From contig OX597828.1 of assembly GCA_951406725.2 (NCBI GenBank), positions 5,208,001 through 5,272,000 of the forward strand: DNA of 64,000 nt, written 5' to 3'. Positions 1,905 through 37,149 of the stretch are shown here, one piece after another. The stretch's first letter is position 1; each line of letters begins with the position of its first letter. The notes beneath the pieces are model-generated. The model had not been told where the DNA came from. It saw only the letters and a list, made by a program, of their open reading frames with translations, and ran no database searches. This stretch comes from Octopus vulgaris (taxonomy: Eukaryota). The position numbers were made by a program, and so were the translations under genes.

Positions 1905-2293
1905 TTTCTTTTACGCTCTTATTTTTTACAGTCATTTGACTGCAGCCATCCTGGATCACCGACTTTAGCCGAACAAATCGACACCGGGACTTATTCTCTC
2001 AGTCTCTTTTGTTTACGGAAAAGTAAACACACCAGCATCGGTTGTCAAGCGATGGTGGGGACAAACACAGATACACAAATACACACACATACACACACAC
2101 ATAGACACACACATATATATATACACACATATATATATATATATACAACGGGCTTCTTTCAGTTTTCCTCTAGCAAATCCACACACAAGGCTTTAAGCTT
2201 TAGTCGGCCCGAGGTTATTCTAGAAGACATTTGCTCAAGATGCCACGCAGTGGGACTGAACCCAGAACGATGAGGTTGGTAAGCAAGCTACTT
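1905..2293 (-). mobile_element. tRNA-derived SINE, family B (GGCGCAGGAGTGGCTGTGTGG head), broken at ...AAGCAAGCTACTT
   Basis: Colinear with the intact copy at 16049-16460 (tail, internal CA/TA tract, cacgcagtgggactgaaccc B-box). Similarity stops at 2293. Confidence 0.88.
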
Positions 2294-2515
2294 TATTGTA
2301 TATCATTTGCCTTAAAGGCAGTGCACAGATAAGGTAGTTTGCGGGATGAACAAGACAAAAATGAGGCGAATGATAATAATACAAGATGATAAAGATAGGA
2401 GAAGACAGAAAGCGGCTGCCGACCCTCAGCTTCTCTAAAACATTATTCGTTAAAAACAACATATATAGAGGTATTAGACATCTTACAAATATATACAAAA
2501 ACTTGTATTAGAAGT
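2294..2515 (-). mobile_element. 3' end of an L1/Tx1-like element homologous to the 29835-31822 insertion
   Basis: Shares ordered motifs with 29835-29975 (TATT, ATTTGYC, CAGTRCA, TTTGCGGG, ACAA, AATGA, GCCGA, TTCTCKAAA) and the same SINE junction. The right boundary is uncertain. Confidence 0.65.
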
Positions 2516-2587
2516 CAGTGAACTTACTTTACCTACAAACAGCTAGGTGCAGACCATACGATTTTTTTAAAATATAGTATATATATA

Positions 2588-2649
<62 letters not shown>

Positions 2650-2733
2650 ATATATTTGCATACATATATATATATATATTTATGTATATATATGTGTATC
2701 TGGGTATCTCTCTCTCTATATATATATATATAT

Positions 2734-2785
<52 letters not shown>

Positions 2786-2786
2786 G

Positions 2787-3497
2787 AAAATAATTTAAGT
2801 GACAGAACCATTTTAATATTATGATAGTACGCTTTCCATTTCAACCTATTTATAAAATTCTTTATATTATTTATCAATTTAATCATAATTTCTCTTTTAT
2901 GTGGCATTGGTTCGTCCTTCAGTGATGATTTCCTTTCCAGGGGTTCTATCTTTCCTGTATACGCTATAACCAAACGTAATTGCGTGTTTAAACTTAGCAA
3001 TTGACGTTCGTTTTCTCTTCATTCACACCTTCCCTCCTCTTTCATTTCACTCTGTCCCTTTTCTTTTTTCTCGTCCTTCTCTAATTTTTTTCTCCGTCTG
3101 CCTCTAACTCTCTCTTCTCTCACCACGTGACCGGTGTTTGGCCAAGTCTGACCTTTCTTTATTGGTTCGACTGCCATCCGCGCAACATCTGTATCCCTCC
3201 CTATGCCTATCAACTCTAATGTCGCTGCCGTAAGGCTTCACTTCCACACATGCTAGTTTAATTTAATTCGTCCTTAGCCCAAAGACCCGTGTGGTTACTG
3301 TCTTTTATTTGCATTTTTATTGTGTACCATTTGTCTATTGTTTTCGTCCTTCTTTTCGTATACATTCGCTGCTTTCTTCCAAGGCATCTAGTTCTCTTAG
3401 ATTAGTTTGTTATTGGCGATGACCAGATTGGAGTAATCTCTAGTATAACCAGTCGAAATTGCAAAGATAACCAGGAACTCGACTGAAGAAAGAAAAC
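2787..3497 (-). mobile_element. Penelope-like element relic (N-terminal ORF fragment plus adjacent repeat)
   Basis: Minus-strand peptide [35 protein letters not shown] resembles the SLKnIPiP...KLI...FikRlRWKA N-terminus I recall from invertebrate Penelope-like ORFs. 3020-3497 loosely resembles repeats at 5467-5880 and 34360-35040. Confidence 0.55.
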
Positions 3498-3500
3498 TAT

Positions 3501-3532
<32 letters not shown>

Positions 3533-3706
3533 GTATATGTATATATATATGTGTATATATATGAATATATATATATATATGCATATACATGCATGTTTAT
3601 ATATATATATATATGCATATATATAGATGTATATGTATAGACGTAAATGTATACATGTATATAAATAGATTTATATTTATATATATATGTAAATATATAC
3701 TTATAT

Positions 3707-3761
<55 letters not shown>

Positions 3762-3796
3762 TATATACATATTTATGAATATATACAAAATATATT

Positions 3797-3833
<37 letters not shown>

Positions 3834-3969
3834 GTATATATACATAACTATATTTATGTATGTATATATATACATATGCATGCATATATATATGTGTATA
3901 TATATGTGCACATATATATGTATGCATATACATGTATATACATAGAGGTATATGTATTATATGCATATA

Positions 3970-4206
3970 GACGCAGAAGTGGGTGGGTGGTAAGCAGCTT
4001 GCTTACCAATCACATGGTTCCGTGCTCATTCCCACTGCGTGGCACATTGGGCAAGTGTCTTCTACGATAGCCTCGGGCCGACCAAAGCCATGTAAGTGGA
4101 TTTGGTAGAATAAGTCCTGGGGTAAATTAGTTCGACTAAAGTTCAACTCCAGCGTGGCCGCACTCAAATGACTAAAATGAAGAAAACGATAAACGAATAA
4201 AAGAAT
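3970..4206 (+). mobile_element. SINE family B, internally deleted
   Basis: Head gacgcagaagtgggtgggtggtaagcagcttgcttacc...gtggatttggtaga joined directly to tail taagtcctgggg...ggccgcac...aaatgact...aaagaat. Confidence 0.85.
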
Positions 4207-4232
4207 ATATCTATGTATCTCTCTCTCCCACC

Positions 4233-4298
<66 letters not shown>

Positions 4299-4701
4299 AT
4301 GCATCTATATATGCACATAAAGATATGTATATATGTATAAATACATATATATATACATATGTATATATGTATAAATATATATATATATATGTACGCAGAT
4401 ATATATATATATATATGTGTGTGTGTGTATACATATATATATGTTTATATATTTGTATATATACATATGCATATGTGTTAGGGGTCAGTTGATGTTTTAA
4501 GGTGTGTATGCTCTTGTGTATATCAATTATATTTTGTTTATGAGTATAAATTTGTCAACGTTAGCGCATATTTTAGTATAGGTTTGATTCTAATTCTTTA
4601 CCTCATGAATACGTCCGAGTATATCTGTAAAGAGATATACGCACATGTGTTTTGTATATCTCAGAATATGTACGTATCTAAGTGTGTATACGTATATATA
4701 T

Positions 4702-4765
<64 letters not shown>

Positions 4766-4886
4766 TATATTTATATATATATAATAAGATTAGCTCGTAT
4801 ACGAGTGGGTATATATTTGTAAAAAATGAAGTTCGAAAATGCTGCTATATTAGACAATTTTTTAATTTTTATATATACATTATTTA

Positions 4887-4928
4887 TTTAACATGTTTCG
4901 GTTCTTGAAATGATGAACCTTATCAAAA
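4887..4928 (-). ncRNA. Degenerate minimal hammerhead ribozyme motif
   Basis: Minus strand reads TTGATAA-GGTTC(atcatttcaa)GAACC-GAAAC-AT-GTTA. Stem II is perfect; the core is mutated relative to CUGANGA. Confidence 0.5.
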
Positions 4929-5241
4929 AAATTATATATAAAAAAGATAGTTCAAGCTATCAAATATAAAAAATTCATATATAATATACAATAGAGTCAG
5001 ACATCAAAAGTTTATATATAGTGAAGTGAGTTCATGCTATATGTTTACAGAGTATGATGTAGTAGTTCATAGTGGTGATATGCATTCAATATAAATAATT
5101 GATGTTCTTGAAAAAGCGAGGAATTCATTTTAGATTTTACCTTGAGTAACTGTGATGACTTTTGGTCGGTGTCCGCTCGGACAGTTCTGGCGAACCTTAT
5201 GAATTGTTTGGGTTTTATATCACCTGTTATATAGATATATA

Positions 5242-5309
<68 letters not shown>

Positions 5310-5394
5310 ATGTATCCATGCATGTATATATGTGTGTTTTCATTTTGATGAGTGTGTATGTACGTGTTTAAATACGTTTGTGTTTTTGTATGTA

Positions 5395-5459
<65 letters not shown>

Positions 5460-7127
5460 ATATAACTTACAGGGCGTCACAAGAAGTAAACAACATGAAA
5501 TACGAAGACAAACATTTTTTGCGAAAAACTTGAGAAGCAAATAGAAAGCAAGATAAGCAACATAAAGAACGACCCTTCATCAGTTGTCGGCTGTTTATCT
5601 ACTCCACATTTCGAGAAATTCCCGGCACTTTTTTCCTTCAAGAAAATAGTTGCTTCTGCAAACCAAAATAAAAGTTGGGATTTTGCAAAGGGTCAAAGTT
5701 GGTAAAAAAACATGACAGTGAAACAAATAGTGAGGGCTGCTAAGCCAGACCTGGGGAAGGTGGCGAACGCTGAGGAACATTCTTTGGCAGGAGAAAAGAT
5801 AGGAGAGGAGACATACATAAATACGTCTGGTCTGTGCAGCAGAACGAAAGAAAAACAAGATGAACACGTGTGGCAAAAGCTTGCATAGAACGTATCCTCA
5901 TTACACACGGACATTGTTATACAGAAATATAAAAGGCATCACTTCGTTATACATAAACTTGGTTTAGTGTGTATGATAAAATATAAGTGATTTTAATATG
6001 ACAATATATATCTACGTTTCCCATTTCGAAATGCCTTTTAGAGCAACATTGTTCAGTAACGGAGTATTACATTACATAATACATAATCATACACCATTAT
6101 CATACACAATCGGATTATGATAACATTGTATTATATATGCGTGTATAGGTGTGTTTGTATGCATGCATATACATATGCATGTATATATACATATGGACAC
6201 ACATATATGTACACACACACAAATATATATATATGCACATCTCCCTATATGTGTGTATGTGCGTGTGTTTGTGAAAGAGAGAGAGAAAGTTTAAGTGAGA
6301 GAGACAGAGGAAGAGAGAAAGAGAGCACAAATTTACGCATGTGTATAATTCTGCTTTTGGTCCCAGGCATAGAAACGTGCTCCATATTCTCCGTAGATAA
6401 TAGGGCGTTGTTCTGTCTAATCACAGACCATAGTTTATATTTGTGTTTTTATTTATGTCTTTAGTTCCATATTTAAATGATTGCTGGAATATTTTTCTTA
6501 TATAACACGTGAAACTATAAAAATAACCCAATATATGCGTGCAGAAGTGCGTCCGTCGATTTTTCTCTCATTTTACGTTTTTCTTCCTCACTTTTTCTCC
6601 ACCTCTTCCCTCCTCTCTCCTCTCTCTTTCACATGCATATATACACAGAAATTCTTTTATACGTTTCACTCATGCGGCAGTAGTATATGTTCATACACAA
6701 ATAATCACACATTCATATTCACGTGTGTATACACAGTCGTACAGTGACAAGTGAGCACGTATTTATGTGAGCATACGTAAATATATATTGACGTATATAC
6801 TCTAACTTATATATGGAAAGTAATTACATTTCTTCAGTTAATTAACTCTCATTTGCATTTTTTTGTCTTGCTTCATACAGATAAAACTGTTTCGGCTTTT
6901 TACTTTTCTTACATTCGCCACTGCTGTGTAATTATTGCGTGTATATATTGACATTATATGCCAAGCGTTAGGTTCATCAGCTAATGCATTCTTTCAAAAA
7001 TGTTGATTTAAAATCAAGAAAGAAACAATTGTACTAGAAAAAAAGAAGAAAGCTGTCTGGAAACGTTAGGAAACATCGCAATCAACGGATGCAATGTACA
7101 TACACACACACACATACACACACACAC

Positions 7128-8562: not shown

Positions 8563-8741
8563 GTATAACTACTGGGATACATTTTACCCGCACTTTTCAT
8601 ACTCTCTGTAATTCAGTATCTAGGTCCTGGTATTTTGCTATTTTTCTATACCTCTCATATAATTTTTTTCGTCCTTTGGGACCGTAAAGTCAATTATCTG
8701 GCATTTTCTATTATCTTTATCTACTACTACTACTACTACTG

Positions 8742-8798
<57 letters not shown>

Positions 8799-10462
8799 AA
8801 TCAGGTCTTCTAGCTTCTATTATTCTGTCAGTCTGAATATTAAAATACCACATTTTATATTTCTTACTTTCTAGTACTTTATTTGGTTCATGGGAATCAA
8901 CTTGCTTTTTGTCTATCTTGGTTTTTATACAATTTCTTCTTAATGCTTGATCTTGTGCAGGTACTAGCAAAACTCCAAACAAATTTCCTATCTCCTTCTT
9001 CAGCTTTGTTTTCTGCAACCATAACCATGTTTCACCACAACTATTTGCTGCAGCTATCTTTAGGAATCTACCATGCAATGCCTTCTAGTGTGAATTGCTG
9101 TGACTCTAGCAGCTTCTAATATACTTACTTCACTATTATCTACATAGAAGTCTATATCTACTCTAGCTAACTCCACGAAGTCTTCTATTTATATTAGCTC
9201 TCTTCTACTTTCCTTTCTAGGTAGATATAATCTTGCTACTCCTGTCTTTGGATGGAGTCCTCCATTCATATTGAGTTACTTCCTAGTTCTTCTATCTAGA
9301 TTTGCTAATTCAATTTTTGTCCAACCTACAACAGCTGCCGAGTAATGATACTGCTTGGCCTTCACTAGATTCCGGGCATTTAACTTTGACAACATTAGCT
9401 TCCGCACCCTTCTGATGTTCCCCATTTTCGTTATCATTTCTATAGTTTCTGTCAGATTCTAATACTTCTAGATACTTATAACTCTTTCCTCCTTTCAATG
9501 ATTTTAATGCCTGGCCATCTGATAATTGGATGCCTTCGCTGTTGACACACTGACCCATTTGTACGACTAATATTGCACACAGATCTATAGCAAATTTCCT
9601 GCCTAAATCTTTGCTGAAAAATCTTACAGTCTGTATTAAGGAATCTATCTTTCATTCTTACTAATAAGCTGCAGATCATCCATGTAGAGCAAATGGTTAT
9701 TTCTGAATTGATACCCTGCTTTTGTCTTCTTTAATACTAAACTGAGAGGGATCAAACATAAGACAAATATTAAAGGGGGAAATAACTCCCTCTGAACAAT
9801 TCCTCTTTTAGTATTAACTTTCCCTAAGACTGTGTCACCTGAGTAGAGATCTACTTTCCATTTATTCATGCTAAAGCGAATTAATTCTCTTATGCTGTCT
9901 ACTATACTGAATATACTTAGACTTTCACCTATCTATGAGTGTGGGATCATATTATAGGATTTCCTATTATATATCTATGCTATTGTTAGATTTTTCTGTC
10001 TAGCTTTTACTCCATTTAGAACTGCTTTCTCTATATACAATAGATCATGCTTCCCCTCTAGCTTTCTTCCTGCAACCTTTCTGTTCTTCTCATAGTAAGT
10101 TCTGGTCATCAAGGTGCTCGTAAATGCTTTCTGAAAGCATTCTTGTTCACTTGGGTAAGCAGGTGATTGATCTATATTTACTCATTAATGCACCAGTTAA
10201 TCTTAAGTCTCACTCTACTTCTTCCTTCACTTTCTTTAATCATACCGCATCTCTATTATGATTGACTGTCTTATCCCAAATATTACTCCAGAACTTTCTA
10301 GCTTCTTCTGCATTAGGTTTCTCATTTTCAGTACTTCGTTCACCATCATTTATTTTCTTATAAAATGTCCTCTGGTCTCAAATAATCTATTTTGTTGATA
10401 CTGATCTATTCTTTTGGGATATCTGCTAGGATACTCTGTTTCAACTCTTCTATTACTTCTGT
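8563..10462 (-). mobile_element. Degenerate RLE-type non-LTR retrotransposon (R4/Dong-like): RT plus restriction-like endonuclease
   Basis: Minus-strand fragments KRGIVQRELFPPLIFVLCLIPL, HLLYMDDL (RT catalytic motif), SYKYLEV, MHGRF, AQDQAL, IEARRPDLVV...DKDNRKCQIIDFTVPKD (RLE PD-D motif) and KYQDL, with many stops and frameshifts. Confidence 0.9.
8721..8797. repeat. (TAC)n microsatellite inside the RLE coding region
   Basis: About 25 units, in frame as poly-Val. Confidence 0.95.
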
Positions 10463-15162: not shown

Positions 15163-16490
15163 AGGAAACTTTTCGTCCACGTCTTTTGCTGCGGCATCTT
15201 TTTGTCCGATGATATTTTTTTCCAGCGACTTTTGTCAAATTTTAGATAAACTCTTTAGAAAACAAGGCGAAATATCTCTGATATATTCACAGAACTATAA
15301 CAAGCTTCGTTCTAAGATTGCTTTTATCGTTCCCTTTCGTTCTCTGTTAACAGTTTTATTTTCTCTGTTTCCTTCTCTCTTTTAAGTATGGAGCTGTGTA
15401 TAGAGAGTGCTGCAAATTTAGTGTACATATTTTCAGTCTACCCATCCCGATATAACAAGTACATAGTATTGACAAAAAACAAAAGAAGAGTAGTTGATGA
15501 AAGTCAATACATCTACGATTTTCATTCAAGCAATACAAAACTAGGAAAAGAATACTGGAAATGTGAGAAAAGAAGAAGGCTGTGTTCATTGCGGAAAACA
15601 ATAAGCCGAAAATTATTTTCTTGTGAGCACTTTCATCCAGCTGATGTAGATTCTTTAAATGCTAGAATAGCAGTTGCAGAAATAGAACATGTAGCGGTGG
15701 AAAACTTAGCAGCAAGTTCGCGTAGCATACTAGCGGCTAGGTTTACGCAGCTAACAGAAAATACTTGCTCACAACTTCCTTGTATGCCTGTATTTTCAAG
15801 GACTATTCAAAGGTTCCGACAAAAAAATATTCTGGATTTCCCGCTAATCCAGGGGCTAGAACTGGTTTTTGAAATACCTGAAGAATATTGTAAACTTGAT
15901 AATGGCGAACACTTTGTGAGGTACGTCGGGTATCGACAGGCAACTGCATACTAGTATTTGCATCAGAAAGTGCTCTTCAGGACATAGCATCATATCGTCA
16001 TTGGGGATGTGATGGAACTTCAAAATTGCGCCAGAACAGTGGTTTCCAACTCTTTTACTCTTTTACTTGTTTCAGTCATCTGACTGCGGCCATGCTGGAG
16101 CACCGCCTTTAGCCGAGAAAATCGACCCCGGGACTTATTCTTTGTAAGCCCAGTACTTATTATATCGGTCTCTTTTGCCGAACCGCTAAGTGACGGGGAC
16201 GTAAACACACCAGCATTGGTTGTCAAGCAATGCTAGGGGAACAAACACAGACACACAAACACACACATACACATACACACATATATATACATATATACGA
16301 CAGGCTTCTTTCAGTTTCCGTCTACCAAATCCACTCACAAGGCATTGGTCGGCCCGGGGCTATAGCAGAAGACACTTGCCCAAGATGCCACGCAGTGGGA
16401 CTGAACCCGAAACCATGTGGCTGGCTAGCAAGCTACTTACCACACAGCCACTCCTGCGCCTATGTTTTACATTCATGTATTGAAGGTAGC
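15163..16490 (+). mobile_element. Mutator-like (MULE) transposon relic with FLYWCH-like domain and first catalytic Asp motif, interrupted by a SINE
   Basis: ORF 15388-15954 has YIY...EYWKCEKR..C...HFH (FLYWCH-like), then FEIPEEY. It continues with LVFASESAL...HWGCDGT.KIAPEQWF.QL and resumes as FYIHV after the SINE. TTTT(C)GTCC-type subterminal repeats occur at 15168-15236. Confidence 0.8.
16049..16460 (-). mobile_element. SINE family B, full length and young
   Basis: Minus strand begins GGCGCAGGAGTGGCTGTGTGGTAAGTAGCTTGC (A-box), has B-box GGTTCAGTCCC, a central TA/TG tract and a (GAGTAAAA)n tail. Confidence 0.92.
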
Positions 16491-25650: not shown

Positions 25651-26051
25651 AATTAGGAAGGGATATATTCACCGAAATTGATACCGACATAAATTAATTT
25701 TGATCAACGTATGTTGTTCACTCTTAGGGGTATATTATGTTATATGGAAATAATTATACGAGTTTTAATAAATTATGTATATTTATAAACGCACATACAC
25801 AAACACACTCGTACACACATACACACACATACATGCACGCAAACACAGTCACACATACACGCATATATATGCAGATCACTTGATACATGTAGTAAATATG
25901 ACATCTAATAACGTCTATAAATGTCCGTTCCATCGACATTAAAAGGCACCGACAGCACACATATATACATACATACGTACTTATGTACATACATACAAAC
26001 AAACACCCACCCACACACATACATGCATACATACATACATATACACACACA

Positions 26052-26123
<72 letters not shown>

Positions 26124-27697
26124 CAGTGGCGGTCAAAATTTTCAGAACGGCATTGTTTTCGTCAGAAAAGTAGGTATAAGTTTTTATCAAAGTTGTTTTA
26201 TATTCTATAATTTTCACAGACAATAAATACAATAATTATTATTATTGTCTCAGATTTTAGTGTAATTTGAGAGGATAATACAAAAGTTATGGATGATTTA
26301 GTGATTTACTGCAAAACCCATGGCGACTAAAATGATCAGAACAGTTGAAAAAAATAACAAAATAATAAAAAATGACAGAGAATACTGGAATTATTTAATA
26401 TTTAGTGTGAAGCCCTTTAGCTTCAATCACACTTTGACATCTTCGACTGCATGAGGAAATTAAATTCCATAATTGCTCAGTTATTTTAGGATTTCTGGCT
26501 TTCGAACGTTCTCCTAGAATATTCCACACATTTTCAATAGGATTGAGATCTGGGTTTTGAGCAGGCCAATCCATAACAATAATCTTTTCAGCCTTGAGAA
26601 AGTTCATGACCACCTTAGCCTTGTGACATGGGGCATTGTCCTGCATGAATATGGGTGGTCGCTTAGTTGAATTTCTCAGCACAGGCAAGACATGATCTTT
26701 TACAAGTTGTTTATAAACTCCTGCATTTACCTTTCCATGTAATCCCACCAAAGGGCCCACACCATCTCCAGATATCATCCCTCAAACCATGACAGTTCCT
26801 CCACCGAATTTAACACAAGTCTCAAGGCATTTAGGCGAGAATTTTTCACCTACTTTTCGACGAACGTACCTTTCCCATCTGAGCCAAATAACATAAACTT
26901 AGATTCATCACTGAAAAGCACCGTTTGCCATTTTCCTTGAGACCACAACACATGTTCGGTTGCAAAGGTAAGACGACACTTTTTATTCTTGGAGCTGATC
27001 AGTGGCTTCACTGCAGGTGCTCTCGCTTGTAGGTCATGTTCAACTAAACGACGACACACAGTTTTTCGAGATAAAGTTTTCTTCAGTACAATGCTCATTT
27101 CCCGAGAAACAGCAGCAGCAGTTTTAAATCTGTCCTTTTTAACCAACTTTACCATAGCACAATCTTGGTCGTTTTTCTTAGCCTACCTGTAGACTTTCTT
27201 GCTTCACACGAACCACAATCATCGTAGACCTTAAGAATACCGTGAACAACACTTTTTCACTTGTTAGCAGTCTTTGCAATAGACCCAATACTTAAATTAT
27301 CCTTCTTTCGAAGCTTAATAATCTGCTGACGAATTGGTAACGGAGTAAATGGCATTATATTAACAAAGTACACTGCAGATATTCTTACTAATGTTTAGTA
27401 AACTAACCGTCAGGTAAACAAATTCAAAACATTAGAGTTCACCGGTTAAATATACTAAAACACGGAGTAAAAGCAACCGTTCTGATCTTTTTGGCCGCCA
27501 TGGGTTTTGCAGTAAATCACTATATCATCCATAACTTTTGTATTATCCTCTCAAATTACACCAAAACCACAGACAATAACAATCAATATGGTATTTATTG
27601 TGTGTGAAAATTATAGAAACTAAAACAACTTTGATAAAAACTTATACGTACTTTTCTGACAAAAACAATGCCGTTCTGAACATTTTGGCCGCAACTG
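26124..27697 (-). mobile_element. Full-length Tc1-family DNA transposon (DD34E-type) with ~220-bp IR/DR terminal inverted repeats
   Basis: TA-CAGTGGCGGTCAAAATTTTCAGAACGG at the left and CCGTTCTGAACATTTTGGCCGCAACTG-TA at the right. TIRs align over ~26124-26345 and ~27476-27697. Confidence 0.95.
26395..27355 (-). pseudogene. Tc1 transposase pseudogene
   Basis: ATG at 27355 (MPFTPLPIRQQII...), VLFSDESKF, FMQDNAPCH, WPAQNPDLNPIENVW and GLHTKY*, broken by stops and frameshifts. Confidence 0.92.
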
Positions 27698-27807
27698 TAT
27701 ATATTCACACGCCTATACTTTCTATACTGAGTTTAGATGCCAGTGGAATCCAACCCATCTCTTCGGTTATTGGCTATTTACGTTATGAAAAAAAAAAAAA
27801 AAATCCA

Positions 27808-27929
<122 letters not shown>

Positions 27930-28292
27930 ATTTTTGTCTCGTTTCATTATATGTGAATCCCCACATTTTGTGCCTGTCGTTTGCATTGCCCCACTCATCC
28001 GTCGCACTAGTGGTAAAGAAAATAAATTATTGTTATTAATCTTGTTGTTTTTGTCTCTAGCTAGTCTACGTTTTGTAGCCGCAGAGAATAGGGCCTGGCA
28101 TTGGCAGAAAGTAGATGTGGTTGCTGTTACCTCTTATGTTGTTGATTTTGTTGTCGTTATTTTTATCTTTGTCCGAATTACCTTCAGAAGCTAGCTGCCG
28201 ACACTGTGTGCGTAGAGGTATATTGTTGTTGTTGTTGTTAAGGTTACTGGCTTAACTTTGAAGGAGGAAGAAAAGACAGATTGCTGGCCTAC

Positions 28293-28417
28293 AGTTAGAT
28301 ATCATTGGTCTATAAATAGATTCAATAAAATGTAGGTAGGGAGGCAGGAAGCAAGTTAGATATCATTGGTCTATAAATAGATTCAATAAAATGTAGGTAG
28401 GGAGGCAGGAAGCAAGT
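28293..28417. repeat. Perfect 61-bp tandem duplication
   Basis: agttagatatcattggtctataaatagattcaataaaatgtaggtagggaggcaggaagca x2. Confidence 0.95.
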
Positions 28418-29271
28418 GCTCGTCCTCATGTGGTCAGCAAAGGTCAAAAATATGTGACTAGAACAGCAACAGTTACTGCTACTGTGGTTAGTGAGAGTGA
28501 AGGTAGGTTTTGACCAAACAACGTTAGTGTGTTCTCTTTCAAATATCGTTGACCTTATATTTTCCAGAATAAATAAAGTTATGAGGTTTCGTAGCGGTGC
28601 AGTGTATTTCTTTCTTTTATTCTATTATTTGTTTCAGGCATATGAATGCGGTCATGCTAAAACAACGCCTTGGAGGAATTTTAGTCGAACAAATCAACCC
28701 CAAAACTTATTTTAGTTCTTTGTGGTTTACGTCACTGTTTACAATTATCTTTAAAACATTTTTTATGTATCATAGATGTAATTTTTGGACGCTGAATCCG
28801 AATTTGTTATTCATTTATCCCAGAGCAATTTTTCCAAAAATGTTACAGATGTTCAAAGTTTGATAATTTTCAGCCAATCACAAAAAGCGCGTTCACTTAC
28901 TTATCCATCATGGAGAGCAGGGAGGATCAGTATGTCAAAACATTGCTAGAAATAGCAGTTAAGACATTAAAATATAACATCAAAACATCAAACTACCAGT
29001 TTGTCATCACCCCTTCCTTCCTTATTCATTTATCATCCTTTCGTTATTCATCTTTTACCCCTTTCTTTCTCATTCATATATTGTGACGGAGAAGACCACA
29101 TGAGTATTATTATAGCAGAATTATATCTCCTTCTCCTCCTTCTGCGCATGAGTAGTATCTTTGGTTAGTATGGGAACAAAGATTTTCGCCTGGCTGATGT
29201 GTAAAATACTCGCTTGGTTAAAATACCCAAAAATTTGCAAACTTTAAAGGCTAATAACTTTTTATATATGG

Positions 29272-29458
29272 ATTGCTGCTTGACTGGTCCCGCGCCGGTG
29301 GCACGTAAAAAGCACAATTCGAGCGTGGTCGATGCCAGTACCGCCTGACTGGTGCCCGTGCTGATGGCACGCAAAATCACCCACTACAGCCTCGGAGTTG
29401 TTGGCGATAGGAAGGGCATCCAGCTATAGAAACCTGGCCAGATCAGATTGGAGTCTGG
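29272..29458 (+). mobile_element. SINE-type 3' fragment (GGTGGCACGTAAAAAGCAC / AGGAAGGGCATCCAGC tail)
   Basis: Duplicated tgactgg...tggcacgyaaaa unit and aggaagggcatccagctatagaaac, recognised as a common cephalopod retroposon tail. Confidence 0.6.
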
Positions 29459-29643
29459 AGCAACGCCTTTAGTCGAGCACATCGACCCCAGAACTTATTC
29501 TTTTGTAAGCCTGGTACTTATTCTATCGGTCTCTTTTGCCGCACCGCTAAGTTACGGGGATGTAAACACACCAGCAACGGTTATCAAGAGATGTTGGAGG
29601 GACAAAAAGACACAAACATGCACGCACACGCACACGCACACGC

Positions 29644-29716
<73 letters not shown>

Positions 29717-29834
29717 CATATATACGACAGGCTTCTTTCAGTTTCCGTCTACCAAATCCACTCACAAGGCTTTGCCCAAGGTGCCACGCAGTGGGACTGA
29801 ACCCGGAACCATGTGGTTGGTAAGCAAGCTACTT
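29459..29834 (-). mobile_element. SINE family B body (3' part of a split copy)
   Basis: Highly similar to 16100-16440 apart from a short deletion; ends at GGTAAGCAAGCTACTT. Confidence 0.9.
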
Positions 29835-31822
29835 TATTTCATAAATTTGTCATATAGACAGTACAAAGAGCTTTGCGGGGTGGACAAATACATTAATGAA
29901 GGAAAATGAATTATAATGAATAAATGAGAGACGAAACCCAACACCCGCCGATTGGATTTTTCTCGAAAATATATTTTCTTTTCTTTTTTTTAATCAATAT
30001 GATGTTTCGAACCTCTTACAAGGAGAAGGCTCTAAAACCTCTTACTTAACATGTTTTCTTTTTTTTTTCTTTCTTCAAGCACAAAATTGAGGTTATAAAC
30101 CACTACAAAATAATCCAATAAGATGAGCTTTCAAATGCAGCTTAAGTTCCTGTATCCCACCATTTCCCATGCCTCACTCATGTAGGACATGTAAGTCGTG
30201 TAAGGGCCACCCGGCCATATGCGACACTCCTCCCCAAATCCTTTAAGCCTTTCCCACAAGGGAAACCTTATGACCTCCACAGCTATCTGCGGCGGCCATT
30301 CGAGATCCCGCGTGAAGGGCATATTTACTGTTTCTTTAAGTTCTTCTACTATTTTTCTACCTCCCCGCCCTTGTAGAAAAAGATAATTAATTGATCATCT
30401 TTAAGGGTGGGGGTGGTTTCTTCCACTGTGGGTGGCACAACTTCGGGACATGCAGTCGGCACATCATATCCCCGCTGAGATGACCCGTTCTTCTTCCTTC
30501 TTTTTTTTCTTTTCTTCCTGGCTTCGGGAGAGTGGAGCTCCTCCGCTTTGTCCGGTGACTCTTCCCCGCCTTCCGAAGCCTTAGGTTCCTTCGGCGGGCA
30601 AATATTGTTGCCCGCCTTCTTCCTTTTTAATCCTTTTTGAGTTGAAGAGGCTGAAGCCTCCTCGACCACATCCACTTTGACCGGGTAGGGGAGGTGGCAT
30701 CTAGTGACAGTTCCAGGACCTTACCATGGTCCTGGGGGTAGTTCCTTTTAATGTGGCCTGGCTGCAGGCACGAGTGACACTTTGGGGGACGTCCCTCAAG
30801 TATCACCGGATACCTGCAGCCAGCCATTTTCAAGAAGTCTGGAAAAACCAGTTCTGTTGCGGCCGATGGGGTCCATAGGGCCAAAATCGCTTTTGACCCT
30901 TCCCAATCGACCGCCGGCAATACTCTTACATTTAAGAGCCTGGGCCCGCCATCCCCCAGTCACCGTCGGATGGTATCTTCAATCCAATCCGCTTCGGTGC
31001 CCGGGGGAGCCCACATACCCATGCTCGTATTAATTTTCTTCCACAATATGACGGGAGAAATAGAATTTCCTTGCCTTCTAAAGGCTGACTCGAAAACTGG
31101 CGAGCCTTTTCCCGTTGTCAAACAGCAGCCATACGGTTGCATGTTTGACACTACGGGATATATATTTTACAGGGGACAAATGTTCTTTAAGTTAATTTTT
31201 TTATGACTTGTTTTGGGAAGACGGTGATGGAATTAAGAACCTTAGAATATGTTCTAAGTACCGTCGTCTTCTCCTCCATATCTTTTAACCATTGCTTAGG
31301 CGGGTTAATTTCCCACTCTAAGACAGAGTTTTTCTTTTTAAGTTCCTTCTCTGCCATGTCAAAAAACAGTTCAAAAGTAGTTCAAAAGACAGTCTGCCAA
31401 AAAATTAAACCGAATAAAATAAAACAAAATAAAAGAGGAGGGGAGGAAACCGAAATTAAAGTAATGAAAAGAATGAACCAAAATTTAGAAAGAAAGAAAA
31501 ATAGAAGAAGTGAAAAGTAAAAGAAAAACCTCACAAATAGCACACACAGGGAATCCTTTGTATAATACTCCAAAAAGGTAATCCAAAAGTTAATCCAAAT
31601 GGCTTATTCTTATTTTTCTGGCGAGATACGCCCACTAGTTTCACAAGAATAATTTTCAAAAAAATTCACATTTCACCGTTACGGTGATGAGAACCCAGTA
31701 TTTTGCTCACTATAGCTAGCCATAATTGACAATTTTTCTTTTTGGTCTTTTTTTACTGTTCGCGGAGCCGAAACTCATATCTGCTCACTGTAACAATCCA
31801 GACCAACTAGTGTTGCATTCTG
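29835..31822 (-). mobile_element. ORF1-only L1/Tx1-like (HAL1-like) retroelement with a 16-bp TSD
   Basis: TSD GGTAAGCAAGCTACTT (29819-29834) / GGTAAGCAAAGCTACTT (31823-31839). Has a 5'UTR, a broken gag/ORF1-like ORF with zinc knuckle, a 3'UTR and AATAAA spanning the 3' junction. No RT or EN sequence is recognisable. Confidence 0.8.
30131..31357 (-). pseudogene. ORF1/gag-like nucleic-acid-binding protein (frameshifted)
   Basis: ATG at 31357 (MAEKELKKKNSVLEWEINPPKQWLKDMEEKTTVLRTYSK), then YPVILEGRPPKCHSCLQPGHIKRNYP (CX2CX4HX4C with the last C as Y), a K/R-rich segment and a C-terminal piece at 30131-30322. Confidence 0.75.
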
Positions 31823-31960
<138 letters not shown>

Positions 31961-32867
31961 CAATATGTGGAGAAACGAAAGACGAGCACACAACCAATTC
32001 ATTGCGAGTTACATGTATGGATCAAAATAGTTTGATTCAAATTCGTTGGTACTCGTGAGTTTCAAGTGTGATGTTAGGCGTCGGACATTTTGAATTTTGA
32101 AATTTTTAATCAAATTGTTTTGATCCATATATATATATATATATATATAAATTTAAAATGAGGTTGAAAAATTGGATATTAATTTGATTAACATCAATTT
32201 AAACCAGTGGTCTTGCATATTAAAATCTGAAGGCTCAGAAAATTCTATTACATACATATGAGTGGGATGACCACTACGTGGACAACCCTTATGCTAGAAG
32301 CAGATCCGCTATGGCCTTACCAATAAGAAATTTTGTCAAGAAAATTTAGCAAACACCAGAACGTAAGGCATAAAATATGTTCGGCAGTTAATATATTTCT
32401 GTTTTTTAAGCTGCTGTTCCTACATGGAAGGAAAAATAAATGTATTTGATCGATCACATGCACGCATACCGTTGCCTTGACACACGGAATACATTTAGCA
32501 TTGTTTACTTATACTGGAAAACTCGTAACAAATGCACATATTTCACGATATGAGGTGTATAAAGGATGTTGTCTATGCATATTTTCTTAATGCTCAAGTT
32601 TCTTGCCTATATTGTAGTTTTCTGATATATATAATATTTAGCATCCATCCTGATAAATCATATTTTCGACTAACAAATGCAACGTTATTGAAGTTTCTAC
32701 ACATTTTTGTCATAACGTATCCACTAAGATAAGACGAAATCATTAATCCAATTTTCAAGTGCACTACATTTTAAGACGAGTTTCTTGTTACTCCTTATAA
32801 TTTTAAAATTTTCCCTTCCAAAGCATGTTGACATAATCAAGTTCACATTCGTTTTCCAAGATAAAAC

Positions 32868-32932
<65 letters not shown>

Positions 32933-34070
32933 TGTGTATATGCTTTTTAAGAAACATTATTCAGCATCAGAATATATCTCTACTTAAGAAGGAGAAAAAA
33001 AATATTCGAGAATACAAGAACTACGAAGATTAGACAATAACCATAAACATAAGAATTCTGGCGCCACTTCTAGGTAATTGATGAAAATTTACAAGAGAAT
33101 AATGACGATCTCAAAAAAGAGAGATAATCAGTAACGTTTCAAAATTGTATTTATATAACCAAAAGAAACATTCACAATAAACATTGTTTAGAATTAAGAA
33201 CGCTTAGTTATGTTTTATTGTTCTAAATCAATAGAATACACAAATATTTTCGTTTGCTTTCTTCTTTCTTTTTTAACATCTACTACTACATGAAACTATT
33301 TTCAGCACTCAGCGTTTTATAAATTCGGTAATAATATTACATCTAGAAGGGTAAAACTGTCTATAAGTGGGAGACAGTGCAAGTTTCTATTGTATCATTT
33401 TTTTTAATATTGAGAAGTTGAAGTTGAAGATCAACCCTACCAAGTCGGTGGTAGTGACAGTAAGACTGAATTTACTATTGGCAACTATAGTAGGCATTAA
33501 ATGAAAGAAAGATGTGCCTCCTGTGACAGCTGAATACACTTTTAATGTGCAACAATAAATCATATCACCGTAAACTAAACATTGTTCTAGAGAGGCAGGT
33601 GGTGCACGTACACGGTATCTTCCGGACTTGACGTCTTTCTTTGTAATGTCAATTCTTGTGAATATTTTCGACCGTTGATTGAAATACGCTCCAGAATATC
33701 AAGGAAAAAATATTGTGTCTCATTCCTAAAAAAAATACAATATTTTAGAAATTTAAAGAGTAAGGTTTCATAATATTGCAGGAATTTTTTTTAAAAATTG
33801 ACCCCATAAGGAATATTTTATTTTTCATTATTCAAAATAATTAAATTATGAGATCAAAATAATAAATAATAATTATATACTCTTTATCACATGTTGAAGT
33901 TCTATTTACAAGCAGTATTTGTATGTGCATGCAACTAGCTTTCCTGAGTTATTGTCCTTGCTTCATTCCCGTCTCATATACTTGTATATGTGTACTTGTG
34001 TGTATATATGCATATATATATATATATACATACATACATACATGCATACATACATACATACATACATACA

Positions 34071-34102
<32 letters not shown>

Positions 34103-34359
34103 AAGTATTGGGCTTTAGTTCAGAAGTGAGCTAACCGATTAAGTACGCTAGGTAAGTGCTGTAACGGATTACTAGGGCTTCTTTTTTCTTCTTTCTTTCC
34201 ATCTCATTCTTTTACTCACTTCTATGTCATCATCTCATTAATATATACCATTCTCATTTTGCCTATTTTTTCCCAATAATAATATTGTATACGACTTGAG
34301 ATGTTTGCCTTGTCTTAACGCTTATCGTCCTCTATAACAATTATATATATATATATATA

Positions 34360-35040
34360 TCAAATGGAACAAAAACGCAATAGAGGACATTAAACATCCG
34401 GACAGATAGACGATATTAAGGCGGACAGAGAAAGCAACAATTAGTTTGACATGAAAAATAAGTACGGCTCATTTGTGGCCTTCATTTTGTTCAATCAAGT
34501 TAGCAGATGTCCTAAGAGTTTCGGGCAGTTACACTTGACACTGATCGATCTGGTCTCGCTCCAAAAAGTCTGAATTAAGAGCATTAGATTTTTTTATGTA
34601 CGACAGCTCCCGAATGTGTACGACAACGAAAGCAAAAACCGGAGAACATGATACACAATTACAAATACAAACAACAAGGATATAACAACCGGTGTCTTTC
34701 GGGTGAGGTGAATGAAATTGAGCTGTCGTGTATAAAGTGAAAGCTTTGAAGTAGGAAGATAGGCGATGGAAATAAGATGTGTTGGCAGTCGGCAGTCAGG
34801 CCGGGAAAGAAAGATCGTATGTATGTATGTATTTCGTTTTTGTATATTGCCTGCAAGATTCTTTATGTGAATTCATATGTTGAAGCATATTTTTTCCTCT
34901 CTGGGGAGAGTTCATTCTGATTTAATGCCATATTACTTAACACACACACCGGTTTGATTTCCACTCATTTACTAATATATTTTTCTATATTTTGTTTCTT
35001 CTTGCAAACTCTTCAACACTTGTTGTCCCTGTCCGTTATC
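34360..35040. mobile_element. Unclassified interspersed repeat related to 3020-3497 and 5467-5880
   Basis: Loose similarity by eye (taagagcattagatt vs catctagttctcttag in inverted orientation); next to a TA tract. Confidence 0.4.
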
Positions 35041-37149
35041 AGAGCTGCGTTCGTTTTATTTGTTTGTACGCATGTGTGTGCGTCAGTGTGCATGTGTATA
35101 CACATACGTCTGTGTATATGTATGTATGTGTATCTATGTGCGTATGTATGCATGTGTGTACGCATATATATGTATGCGTGTGTGTACGTTTGTACGTATG
35201 TATTCTGCATATTCATGTGCTTCTATGTTCCTGTTTGTATGGTTGTATGTGTGTGTGTATGTGTGTGCGCGTTTGTGTGTCTTCAAGTGTGTGATTGTGT
35301 TCGCGCGCATTTGTGTGTGTACCCTTGCCTCCTTGTGTGTGCATGCTTGAGTGTGTGTATGAGAATGGACGTGCTTGGATATATACGTGTGTGTGATATG
35401 TATGGATGTGTGCCTCCATATTTGTCCTTGGTTATTTCTACACAACTTCACGGTATGTGAGAGATAGCACTGTTGTGATCCCATCCGTCCTTTCGCAGGT
35501 AATGTTTTCACATTGCATGCTGTTCAACGAAAACCACCCACCCTACCGAATAGGCTTTGTAGGGCGGCCGGTTTAGTTGCTGGTGGCCTGACAATATAAA
35601 AGCTTGTACACCCCCCACGCATGCCACACCAAACACACTACATTCGTCTTCACCCCTATATTCATCGTACCACGCAAAATTTATATATTATGGACCCATA
35701 CGCTGATTTAAAGCGAATATAATGATCTCCGTACATTTTTTGGTATATAAGTATATAGCACACATTTTGGCAGAAATGACTATGTAACATCTCAAAATGT
35801 ATTTCCTAAGCATCGGATTTTCATATTTTGTACATGATTTCTTATTTTCGACAGTAATTTAAAGAAAATATATTCTGGGCTTGGATGCAGTTATGCGACA
35901 TAAAGCAGATAATGTTATACAGTGCCTTGAATAAACATCGCATAATATATTATCTCTTCCGGCATATATCATGAAATGTGTGGCTGTTAATGAAATCATT
36001 AGTGTTTCAGCAGATCTATGACGCATATACATCACATATCGGCAAAACAGAGTTGCTTAATACATCGATCAGTGTGTGAAGTCTCCCGTGGGATTTTTTA
36101 TTTGAGAATATATTACGGATAATATTCATGTTTACATATAGAATAACTTCTCATTAATTATTTAGTGACAGGAACGTAGTTATATTTAGAAAGATCCCAC
36201 TAATACGTCATCTTGGGAATGACTAGTGTTCTGCTACACTAACTTTTTGTAACATATTCCTCTTAGATCTTCGCTATGATAATGCACAGGTCAACGAATA
36301 GCTAAATACCACTGGGGAAAGATATAGTAGCGAAACTAACTTACTTCCCGAAGCAAAATAAAATCAGAAAAGGGACGCTAAATGATACTTCTATGTAAAT
36401 AATGCGTAGAAATTAATATCAAGTCACACTCTATCAGTATATATTAGTCAAATGCATCATATCTACGTTCTGTTGGTATCAAAAGATTAATATAAATTGG
36501 TTTCTCTCATGTGGCAAAAATTAACCGATTTCATGCATTGCATGTGGAAGAAACTACCTTTAAAGTTTTAGTGAATTCATCATATTAGCTTCTGTGTTTA
36601 TTTCAGTTTGATTTTTATTGTATGGACTCTTATTTGTCGTACTAACATAAGTGATTTCAGATAAATCATATCCTTGAAAAGCGCTCACGCACACATTTGT
36701 AAACAGTTTAAAGACGCATATGAACCTAGGCAATAACATTTCAGTTGAATGAATAAACACCACAAATAGACATGCAATCGTCCCTATCAATTTCTGCCAA
36801 TTCAAAAACATCTGAGGATAGCGCCACATTACTTTGACTCATTGTTATTACCCTGGCTCCCATGAAATAGACGTTTTCACCTCCCTGGTGCTGCAAACAT
36901 TCCATTATCTCCCCAATTTCTCCTTTTGTAACAACTGACAATGTAGGGCGTGTTTAGCAGAGAATCTGTAAGCGCATAGCTACAATATTTCCACTCAAAA
37001 ATATCAGTTAGATGTTCCTAAAGTCATCGAAGTTGATCAGTTCTCTTTTCCTTAGAATTAATTTCCCTTCTGTACAGCTCCATTGATCAGTAGCCTAGAT
37101 TTTCATTCATATCTAATTCAGGATTTTGAATGCCATATAGAGCTACTTG

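Follow-up and report, generated by a model that had tools for sequence, protein, structure and literature searches.

Two diverged retroelement tails at the identical base of a SINE head in Octopus vulgaris are consistent with site-preferring insertion

Two copies of one SINE in a 64,000-nucleotide stretch of Octopus vulgaris DNA (the window) are broken at the identical base, at the ends of 1905-2293 and 29455-29834, and both then run on into homologous tails. We consider it probable, at roughly 60%, that these junctions record separate insertions, each primed at the target, by two members of a lineage that prefers the SINE head and is probably of Tx1 type. Four SINE copies in the window span the site, against 128,000 base-strand positions, and two random insertions at a single base and strand are implausible; the choice therefore lies between site preference and common descent. 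Both copies of the element in the window are flanked by the SINE site (2/2, with n = 2 and a single window). If this reading is true, it would add a new target class to the evolution of endonuclease specificity, supply a palindromic site on which second-strand cleavage becomes testable, and represent one mobile element disabling another in SINE-rich octopus genomes.

The four site-spanning SINE copies are as follows.
1905-2293, minus strand: body of the first host SINE, aligned by blastn to the intact copy at 16051-16438 and without the first ~22 nt of the head.
29455-29834, minus strand: body of the second host SINE, which has a deletion of its own near 29773 and includes the downstream target copy at 29819-29834.
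3967-4206, plus strand: empty SINE copy whose head is intact across the site (blastn, alignments).
16049-16460, minus strand: empty full-length SINE copy, with the site at junction base 16438/16439.

The first host comprises a B-box-like motif, a central domain, a (CA)n/(TA)n stretch and a 3′ tail, and its 3′ end at 1905 is intact. Both empty copies read through the site into the head, which bears out their earlier use as empty-site controls; a fifth SINE fragment, at 14.7 kb, ends before reaching the site. An inverted repeat spans the site in each empty copy (16417-16432 / 16436-16451 and 3983-3996 / 4000-4013), and within it CTT/ACC, where the slash marks the junction, appears on both strands, 13 nt apart. 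The head is predicted to fold as a long hairpin (-32.9 kcal/mol, z -1.8), a stability reached by 5 of 200 shuffles. A-box-like and B-box-like motifs are visible in the SINE alignments; the head gave no tRNA match in Rfam or ARAGORN, and these searches found no tRNA gene. Diverged SINE heads often fail tRNA-recognition tests. The window is microsatellite-rich, and among the best 150 of 219 Rfam matches to the whole of it we found only microsatellite-driven miRNA matches. Another repeat, at 29280-29460 and probably from a second SINE family, abuts the 29-kb host SINE and takes the place of its 3′ end.

The locus near 30 kb has a complete anatomy, in the order SINE body, insert, second target copy and displaced head. 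Beyond the host body, its parts are the following.
29835-31822, minus strand: ORF1-only retroelement copy of 1988 bp, lying between the target copies in the sense of the SINE.
30131-30394, minus strand: 87-codon open frame that follows the ORF1 linker; no Pfam or PDB match.
30520-31339, minus strand: frameshifted ORF1 (tblastn) with a degenerate CCHC knuckle (Pfam zf-CCHC, E 0.045, below cut-off).
31823-31839, minus strand: upstream target copy of 17 nt, with one extra A, forming the target-site duplication (TSD; alignment).
31840-31861, minus strand: displaced 22-nt SINE head with the A-box-like motif (blastn, alignments).

The TSD measures 16 bp (29819-29834 / 31823-31839). A self-search of the window revealed no long similarity between the two ends of the insert, and thus no long terminal repeat or terminal inverted repeat. 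No open reading frame for a reverse transcriptase (RT) or endonuclease was found in 29835-31822, where five frames of the insert were scanned for these families; the copy, complete between its TSDs, codes for ORF1 and no ORF2. Its SINE-sense strand holds eight T runs of at least five residues. Such runs act as Pol III terminators, and because all eight lie between the A- and B-box-like motifs, Pol III is unlikely to have copied head, insert and body as one unit.

The window holds the 16-mer GGTAAGCAAGCTACTT exactly twice, at 2278 and at 29819, and TATT follows it directly in both places, as the preliminary description had stated in noting that the SINE at 1905-2293 stops just as the other does at 29834/29835. 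Both tails end in AATA, so that AATAAA is formed across the junction at 2.3 kb and at 30 kb alike. The 3′ ends of both inserts are without poly(A), and the inserts share the sense of their SINEs, both on the minus strand.

Public sequencing data place the 30-kb copy in a larger family. Parts of the element are carried by 20 of 24 listed runs (10 studies, four organism codes), at no more than 43% of the sampled 31-mers, and from four of these 24 runs, representing four organism codes, we aligned contigs to 29730-31861. The element at 29835-31822 is covered in 30/30 bins in 4/4 runs, by many variant contigs. Letters that only the window copy has hardly occur in the aligned runs, and the matches therefore stem from paralogues: the 30-kb copy belongs to a multicopy family with close relatives. 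Joints that skip the whole insert, corresponding to empty SINEs, are present in 4/4 runs. None of the contigs listed spans the whole element, and the loose ends (24 of 1931) and joints (15 of 735) that were listed all concern the SINE, not the element. Judged by their lengths only, contigs appear to run from 14 to at least 36 letters beyond the junction.

The SINE itself is a short dispersed repeat of very high copy number, with several copies in the window and 97,669-235,111 contigs per run, the depth being concentrated on the SINE bins. At 29834, the majority of contig ends go on into the head and then into (TA)n in 4/4 runs, which suggests that the host SINE often adjoins TA microsatellites. 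Summed contig depth, which is not a copy number, is about a thousandfold higher for the SINE than for the element; given this ratio, two filled sites among four copies within 28 kb look like an unexplained local excess. Junction and SINE motifs had 0 matches in viral, metagenome and genome (prokaryote) contig collections.

At the 2.3-kb locus we distinguish three stretches.
2278-2293, minus strand: target sequence where the insert's 3′ end joins the SINE, the same 16 nt as 29819-29834.
2294-2395, minus strand: ~100 nt at the insert's 3′ terminus, homologous to the 30-kb element's 3′ end, with 69/88 aligned letters identical (shuffle tests).
2396-2575, strand not assigned: weakly related insert or unrelated flank, not significant in alignment tests.

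When 2294-2460 was aligned with 29835-29990, none of 2000 dinucleotide shuffles scored as well under 5/-4 or 1/-1 scoring, and 16/2000 did so under 2/-3. An alignment anchored at the first base of both tails scored 158, whereas 300 shuffles reached no more than 104, and among 2554 slices of the window the best non-self matches of the tail were the two at 29.8 kb (169 and 162; next 133). In addition, 5-12 contigs per run have a base at the one-base gap that the 30-kb copy shows near 29842, which brings back the spacing seen at 2.3 kb. The signal is confined to the first ~100 nt: past ~2395, homology was not significant, with 188, 412 and 570 of 2000 shuffles matching the alignment of 2394-2560 with 29935-30130 under three scorings. 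A blastn piece of 62% identity does extend to 2451 (pairwise E 5e-5), with its first part carrying the score. Of the ~150 bp of motifs that had been described as shared with the 3′ UTR at 30 kb, the first ~100 nt thus hold up, and the part past ~2395 does not. Neither tail folds significantly (z -1.7, with equal stability in 13-14 of 200 shuffles), and no coding remnant linking 2294-3490 to the 30-kb element was found by tblastx (best E 0.27) or in translations.

A degraded TSD and head, proposed in the preliminary description at 2514-2556, proved to be background: its local score is reached by 7.7% of window slices, and its end-to-end score by 9.6-59% of 426 blocks of 300 nt over nine combinations of query and scoring. 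Local and end-to-end alignment detected no recognisable TSD or SINE head beyond the 2.3-kb tail. The locus is likely a decayed fragment for which a host function is unlikely, and its value is that of a second data point for site preference. Just left of the 3′ end of the 2-kb SINE, 12 nt within 1872-1890 are identical to 29845-29856 of the 30-kb tail, which is probably an AT-rich chance match. The 2.3-kb insert is followed by a (TA)n array, and just past it lies a 76-codon frame (2791-3018, minus strand) with no Pfam match, whose end resembles the start of Penelope-like element ORFs; this frame may have to do with how the SINE head at 2.3 kb was lost.

The relative divergence of hosts and tails bears on whether one event or two are recorded. 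The host SINEs are identical at 193/228 positions and the tails at 69/88 aligned letters, a contrast that is not significant on aligned letters alone (Fisher p 0.19). We rejected the raw tail identity of 78% as a measure of divergence because shuffled pairs average 62% with the same global aligner (maximum 79.5%). Alignment scores behave differently: the 63 nt of SINE before the junction score 270, compared with 105 for the 63 nt of tail after it. Simulated copies with 15% substitutions and 2-4% indels fell as low as the observed tail score in 0-1 of 1000 cases; with 10% indels, 10% of copies fell to that score at 15% substitutions and 26% at 20%. The low-indel simulations are fairer because the hosts differ by a few large deletions and few small indels, although the AT-rich tail may slip more. 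Flanks compared on either side (1-1904 with 26000-29454, and 2460-6000 with 31862-36000) yielded only microsatellite-type or marginal matches, and a search for an outer TSD gave nothing longer than a 7-nt T run.

The drop in score at the junction and the unrelated flanks argue against a single duplicated insertion. Since the tails are more diverged than their hosts, a recent duplication, which the preliminary description had already thought unlikely, is rejected, and two joining events are favoured; to judge from the alignments, the tails most likely split before either joined its host. That description had gone on to read the pair as two independent hits revealing targeting by at least two subfamilies. 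The implausibility of a random double hit and the preference for two joining events speak for the first part, tempered by n = 2 and by the lack of a TSD or head at the second locus; the distinction of two putative subfamilies rests on ~100 nt of one copy.

As the main rival, the 2.3-kb locus could instead descend from a headless chimera, which would give an identical junction. A targeted or chance insertion lineage would have been transcribed past its 3′ end into a SINE body, or RT would have jumped at the hairpin from a SINE RNA template to one of element RNA, the resulting truncated tail plus SINE body then being copied to 2.3 kb by the partner LINE of the SINE; the junction would be inherited or due to structure, with no second hit by an endonuclease. 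Such an origin would suit the absence of a head or TSD past the tail, the intact SINE 3′ end at 1905, the sense shared by element and SINE, and the long hairpin into which the head folds; being headless, the chimera also escapes the Pol III-terminator argument. We nevertheless regard it as unlikely, for the tails are far more diverged than the hosts right at the junction, so that the chimera would have to stem from another insertion at that base that had diverged beforehand, and this in turn calls for site preference. A head-proximal alignment of the four copies displays no obvious private change shared by the hosts, and their deletions differ. There is also no outer TSD, though the intact 16-kb copy shows none either.

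It is more improbable still that both loci go back to one ancient insertion through local duplication or amplification of the whole unit, the tails decaying fast by slippage while gene conversion with the abundant family kept the SINE parts similar. The flanks, as noted, share only microsatellite-type or marginal matches, and the 30-kb copy has close paralogues and hence is far younger than the split of the tails. Weighing on the other side are the common strand of two loci 28 kb apart, the seeming rarity of filled copies genome-wide (by the depth ratio) and the ability of high indel rates to remove the divergence contrast.

We give little credence to the idea that the inverted repeat forms a break- or nick-prone hairpin or cruciform that catches cDNAs of a non-specific L1/Tx1-type family. 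The repeat does lie across the site in both empty copies, and the junction is a TT/A step of the kind that resembles generic L1 nick sites, but base, orientation and family are the same in both cases, and at 30 kb the duplication of 16 bp is clean, which suits target-primed insertion rather than repair. Lastly, that the 2.3-kb SINE is merely 5′-truncated next to an AT-rich flank accidentally like the other tail is very unlikely: significance is modest under strict scoring (12-39/2000 shuffles) and shuffled pairs attain 62% mean and 79.5% maximum identity, yet shuffles gave 0/2000 under two scorings and 0/300 in the anchored test, the match is the best non-self one in the window and starts at the junction base, and filling the 29842 gap in 5-12 contigs per run restores the 2.3-kb spacing.

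For the preferred reading, insertion by members of a SINE-head-preferring lineage, we propose a mechanism in which an autonomous partner would supply the endonuclease (APE) and RT in trans. The partner would nick the plus strand at CTT/ACC, just 3′ of the A-box-like motif, and the freed 3′-TT could pair with the AATA(A) end of the element RNA, priming reverse transcription. A second nick 13-16 nt away would then produce the target duplication; alternatively, a symmetric 13-bp cut with 3 nt of microhomology could generate the 16-nt repeat, and this fits equally because the inverted repeat shows CTT/ACC on both strands. Insertion would part the A-box-like from the B-box-like motif and silence the host SINE, which would serve as a harmless, very abundant landing pad. 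The 2.3-kb tail is likely an older insertion by a diverged member of the lineage, at which the remaining insert and head would have been lost or have decayed. No ORF2 was found, so that the clade and the endonuclease are putative.

A bolder version remains tentative, and as a whole we rate it below even odds: octopus may harbour a long-lived retrotransposon lineage, one rider of which carries ORF1 (gag) only. The lineage's endonuclease would specifically recognise a palindrome within the head of the SINE that is most abundant in the genome, and would cut both strands at the same motif. Each insertion would split the SINE's Pol III promoter, hundreds of thousands of safe targets would be available, and the lineage, a parasite living on another parasite, would have been kept up across diverged subfamilies.

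The clade assignment draws on ORF1. Its pieces match residues 3-114, 98-219 and 226-274 of an uncharacterised Octopus sinensis protein (LOC115225585, 281 aa; P0001 in our set) at 54%, 59% and 50% in tblastn, with 65% identity over the best stretch. Matches to zf-CCHC (E 0.045 and 0.058) were both below the Pfam cut-off. For residues 1-205 of the O. sinensis protein, Atlas feature matches were to CCHC and ZCCHC3-type RNA-binding clusters (0.90-0.92), and the Atlas structure rows were RRM-like (TM 0.39-0.55), a lead from a single source of evidence. Our own structure prediction from a single sequence was unusable (pLDDT 38). ORF1 is probably of a broken RRM+CCHC type, which fits Tx1 and is not unique to it; such ORF1s also occur in Jockey-superfamily elements. 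According to the accessible part of one account, RRM+CCHC ORF1s in non-mammalian animals are in keeping with the Tx1 clade and are also present in plant L1s (PMC5203782), and in that of another, all ORF1 types are found in L2/CR1 lineages (PMC4120745).

Nine proteins matched ORF1, with the O. sinensis protein as the sole real homologue; among the five inspected, three were oomycete-type knuckle repeats and one was an unrelated repeat protein. Protein searches returned no longer or fused relatives of the O. sinensis protein or of the knuckle piece, the former as query retrieving itself only; no relatives of it were present in viral or genome (prokaryote) contig collections, and PDB sequence searches gave nothing meaningful. 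The 87-codon frame at 30131-30394 is possibly the C-terminal part of ORF1. In other members of the family one nucleotide is inserted after 30351, and 30234-30305 forms a depth peak in 4/4 runs; the frame may be conserved and common to more families.

By comparison with known systems, the feature probably behaves like a Tx1 element that targets transposable elements (TEs), with an ORF1-only member. In the accessible sections of PMC4494074, Tx1 families of this sort include Xenopus Tx1L in Tx1D, crocodilian Tx1-Mar and SINEU in Mariner-N4_AMi, Tx1-8_Crp and Tx1-4_AMi in LTR elements, and Tx1-9_AMi in Harbinger; the clade's targets extend to U2 genes and microsatellites, the non-autonomous SINEU shares the Mariner target, and target specificity is assigned when more than 20% of copies are flanked by one target. 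Shared with these are a fixed position in an abundant repeat, a target duplication, and several related families with non-autonomous riders on the same target. The octopus case differs in that its target is a SINE head and its complete copy codes for ORF1 only, and its Tx1 membership is putative.

HAL1 (half-L1) elements are ORF1-only derivatives of mammalian L1, for which the accessible part of the source does not mention site preference (PMC5753468). Like HAL1, the octopus element is non-autonomous and multicopy and retains ORF1 and the 3′ end; unlike it, the element comes from a mollusc rather than a mammal, lacks poly(A), and has an RRM+CCHC-like ORF1 where HAL1 has Transposase_22. HAL1 proper, as a mammalian L1 derivative, was discarded as a candidate on finding no Transposase_22 ORF1, the O. 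sinensis protein giving no match to that family at E up to 10. HeT-A, of Drosophila telomeres, resembles the octopus element in possessing a gag-like ORF only, in depending on a partner's RT and in its restricted landing site, and differs in residing at chromosome ends, belonging to the Jockey clade and making no target duplication.

Elements that target small-RNA genes offer a further comparison: in the accessible parts of PMC4640811 and PMC8869645, Keno and Utopia target U2, NeSL-1_TV and LIN15/LIN25_SM target tRNA genes, and Dada DNA transposons target the A box and anticodon of tRNA genes. The octopus insertions likewise occupy a fixed site in a Pol III-type head, beside an A-box-like motif, whereas the observed target is a SINE with a head that matched no tRNA, and Dada, unlike the octopus element, is a DNA transposon with ~6-bp TSDs. 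As for the host SINE, OR2 is listed as a CORE SINE of octopus in the accessible part of PMC4758252, and octopus SINEs are described as dominated by tRNA-Core and tRNA-Deu in that of PMC8967140. Compared by description only, and with no family named, our host resembles such tRNA-derived SINEs in being a very abundant short repeat with A-/B-box-like motifs.

A 1995 title among the references of PMC3747384 reportedly announced a site-specific retroelement in bovine Alu-like sequences, a case said to have been explained later by the derivation of Bov-A from Bov-B ends and hence a caution for such claims. A Bov-A-type explanation fits poorly here because the SINE reads on without a break at the site and is far more numerous than the filled form. 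In O. vulgaris, 80 L1-Tx1 families have been described, 13 of them recently active, with targets not mentioned in the accessible part of the source (PMC13282606). In our literature search no lineage came up that is specific for a SINE head and includes an ORF1-only member; Repbase, Dfam and octopus libraries (the Zenodo library of PMC13282606) lay outside this search and may contain it.

The window contains other repeats as well. An ORF broken by a trinucleotide repeat at 8638-9078 (minus strand), with only low-complexity matches in Pfam, resembles what we take to be the C-terminal nuclease region of a non-LTR element. A 188-codon ORF at 15388-15954 (plus strand) has a weak match to the FLYWCH zinc finger (E 0.015) and is possibly the remnant of a MULE-type transposase. 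Finally, 26395-26778 (minus strand) holds a DDE_3 transposase fragment (Pfam E 2.2e-12), the relic of a Tc1-like DNA transposon.
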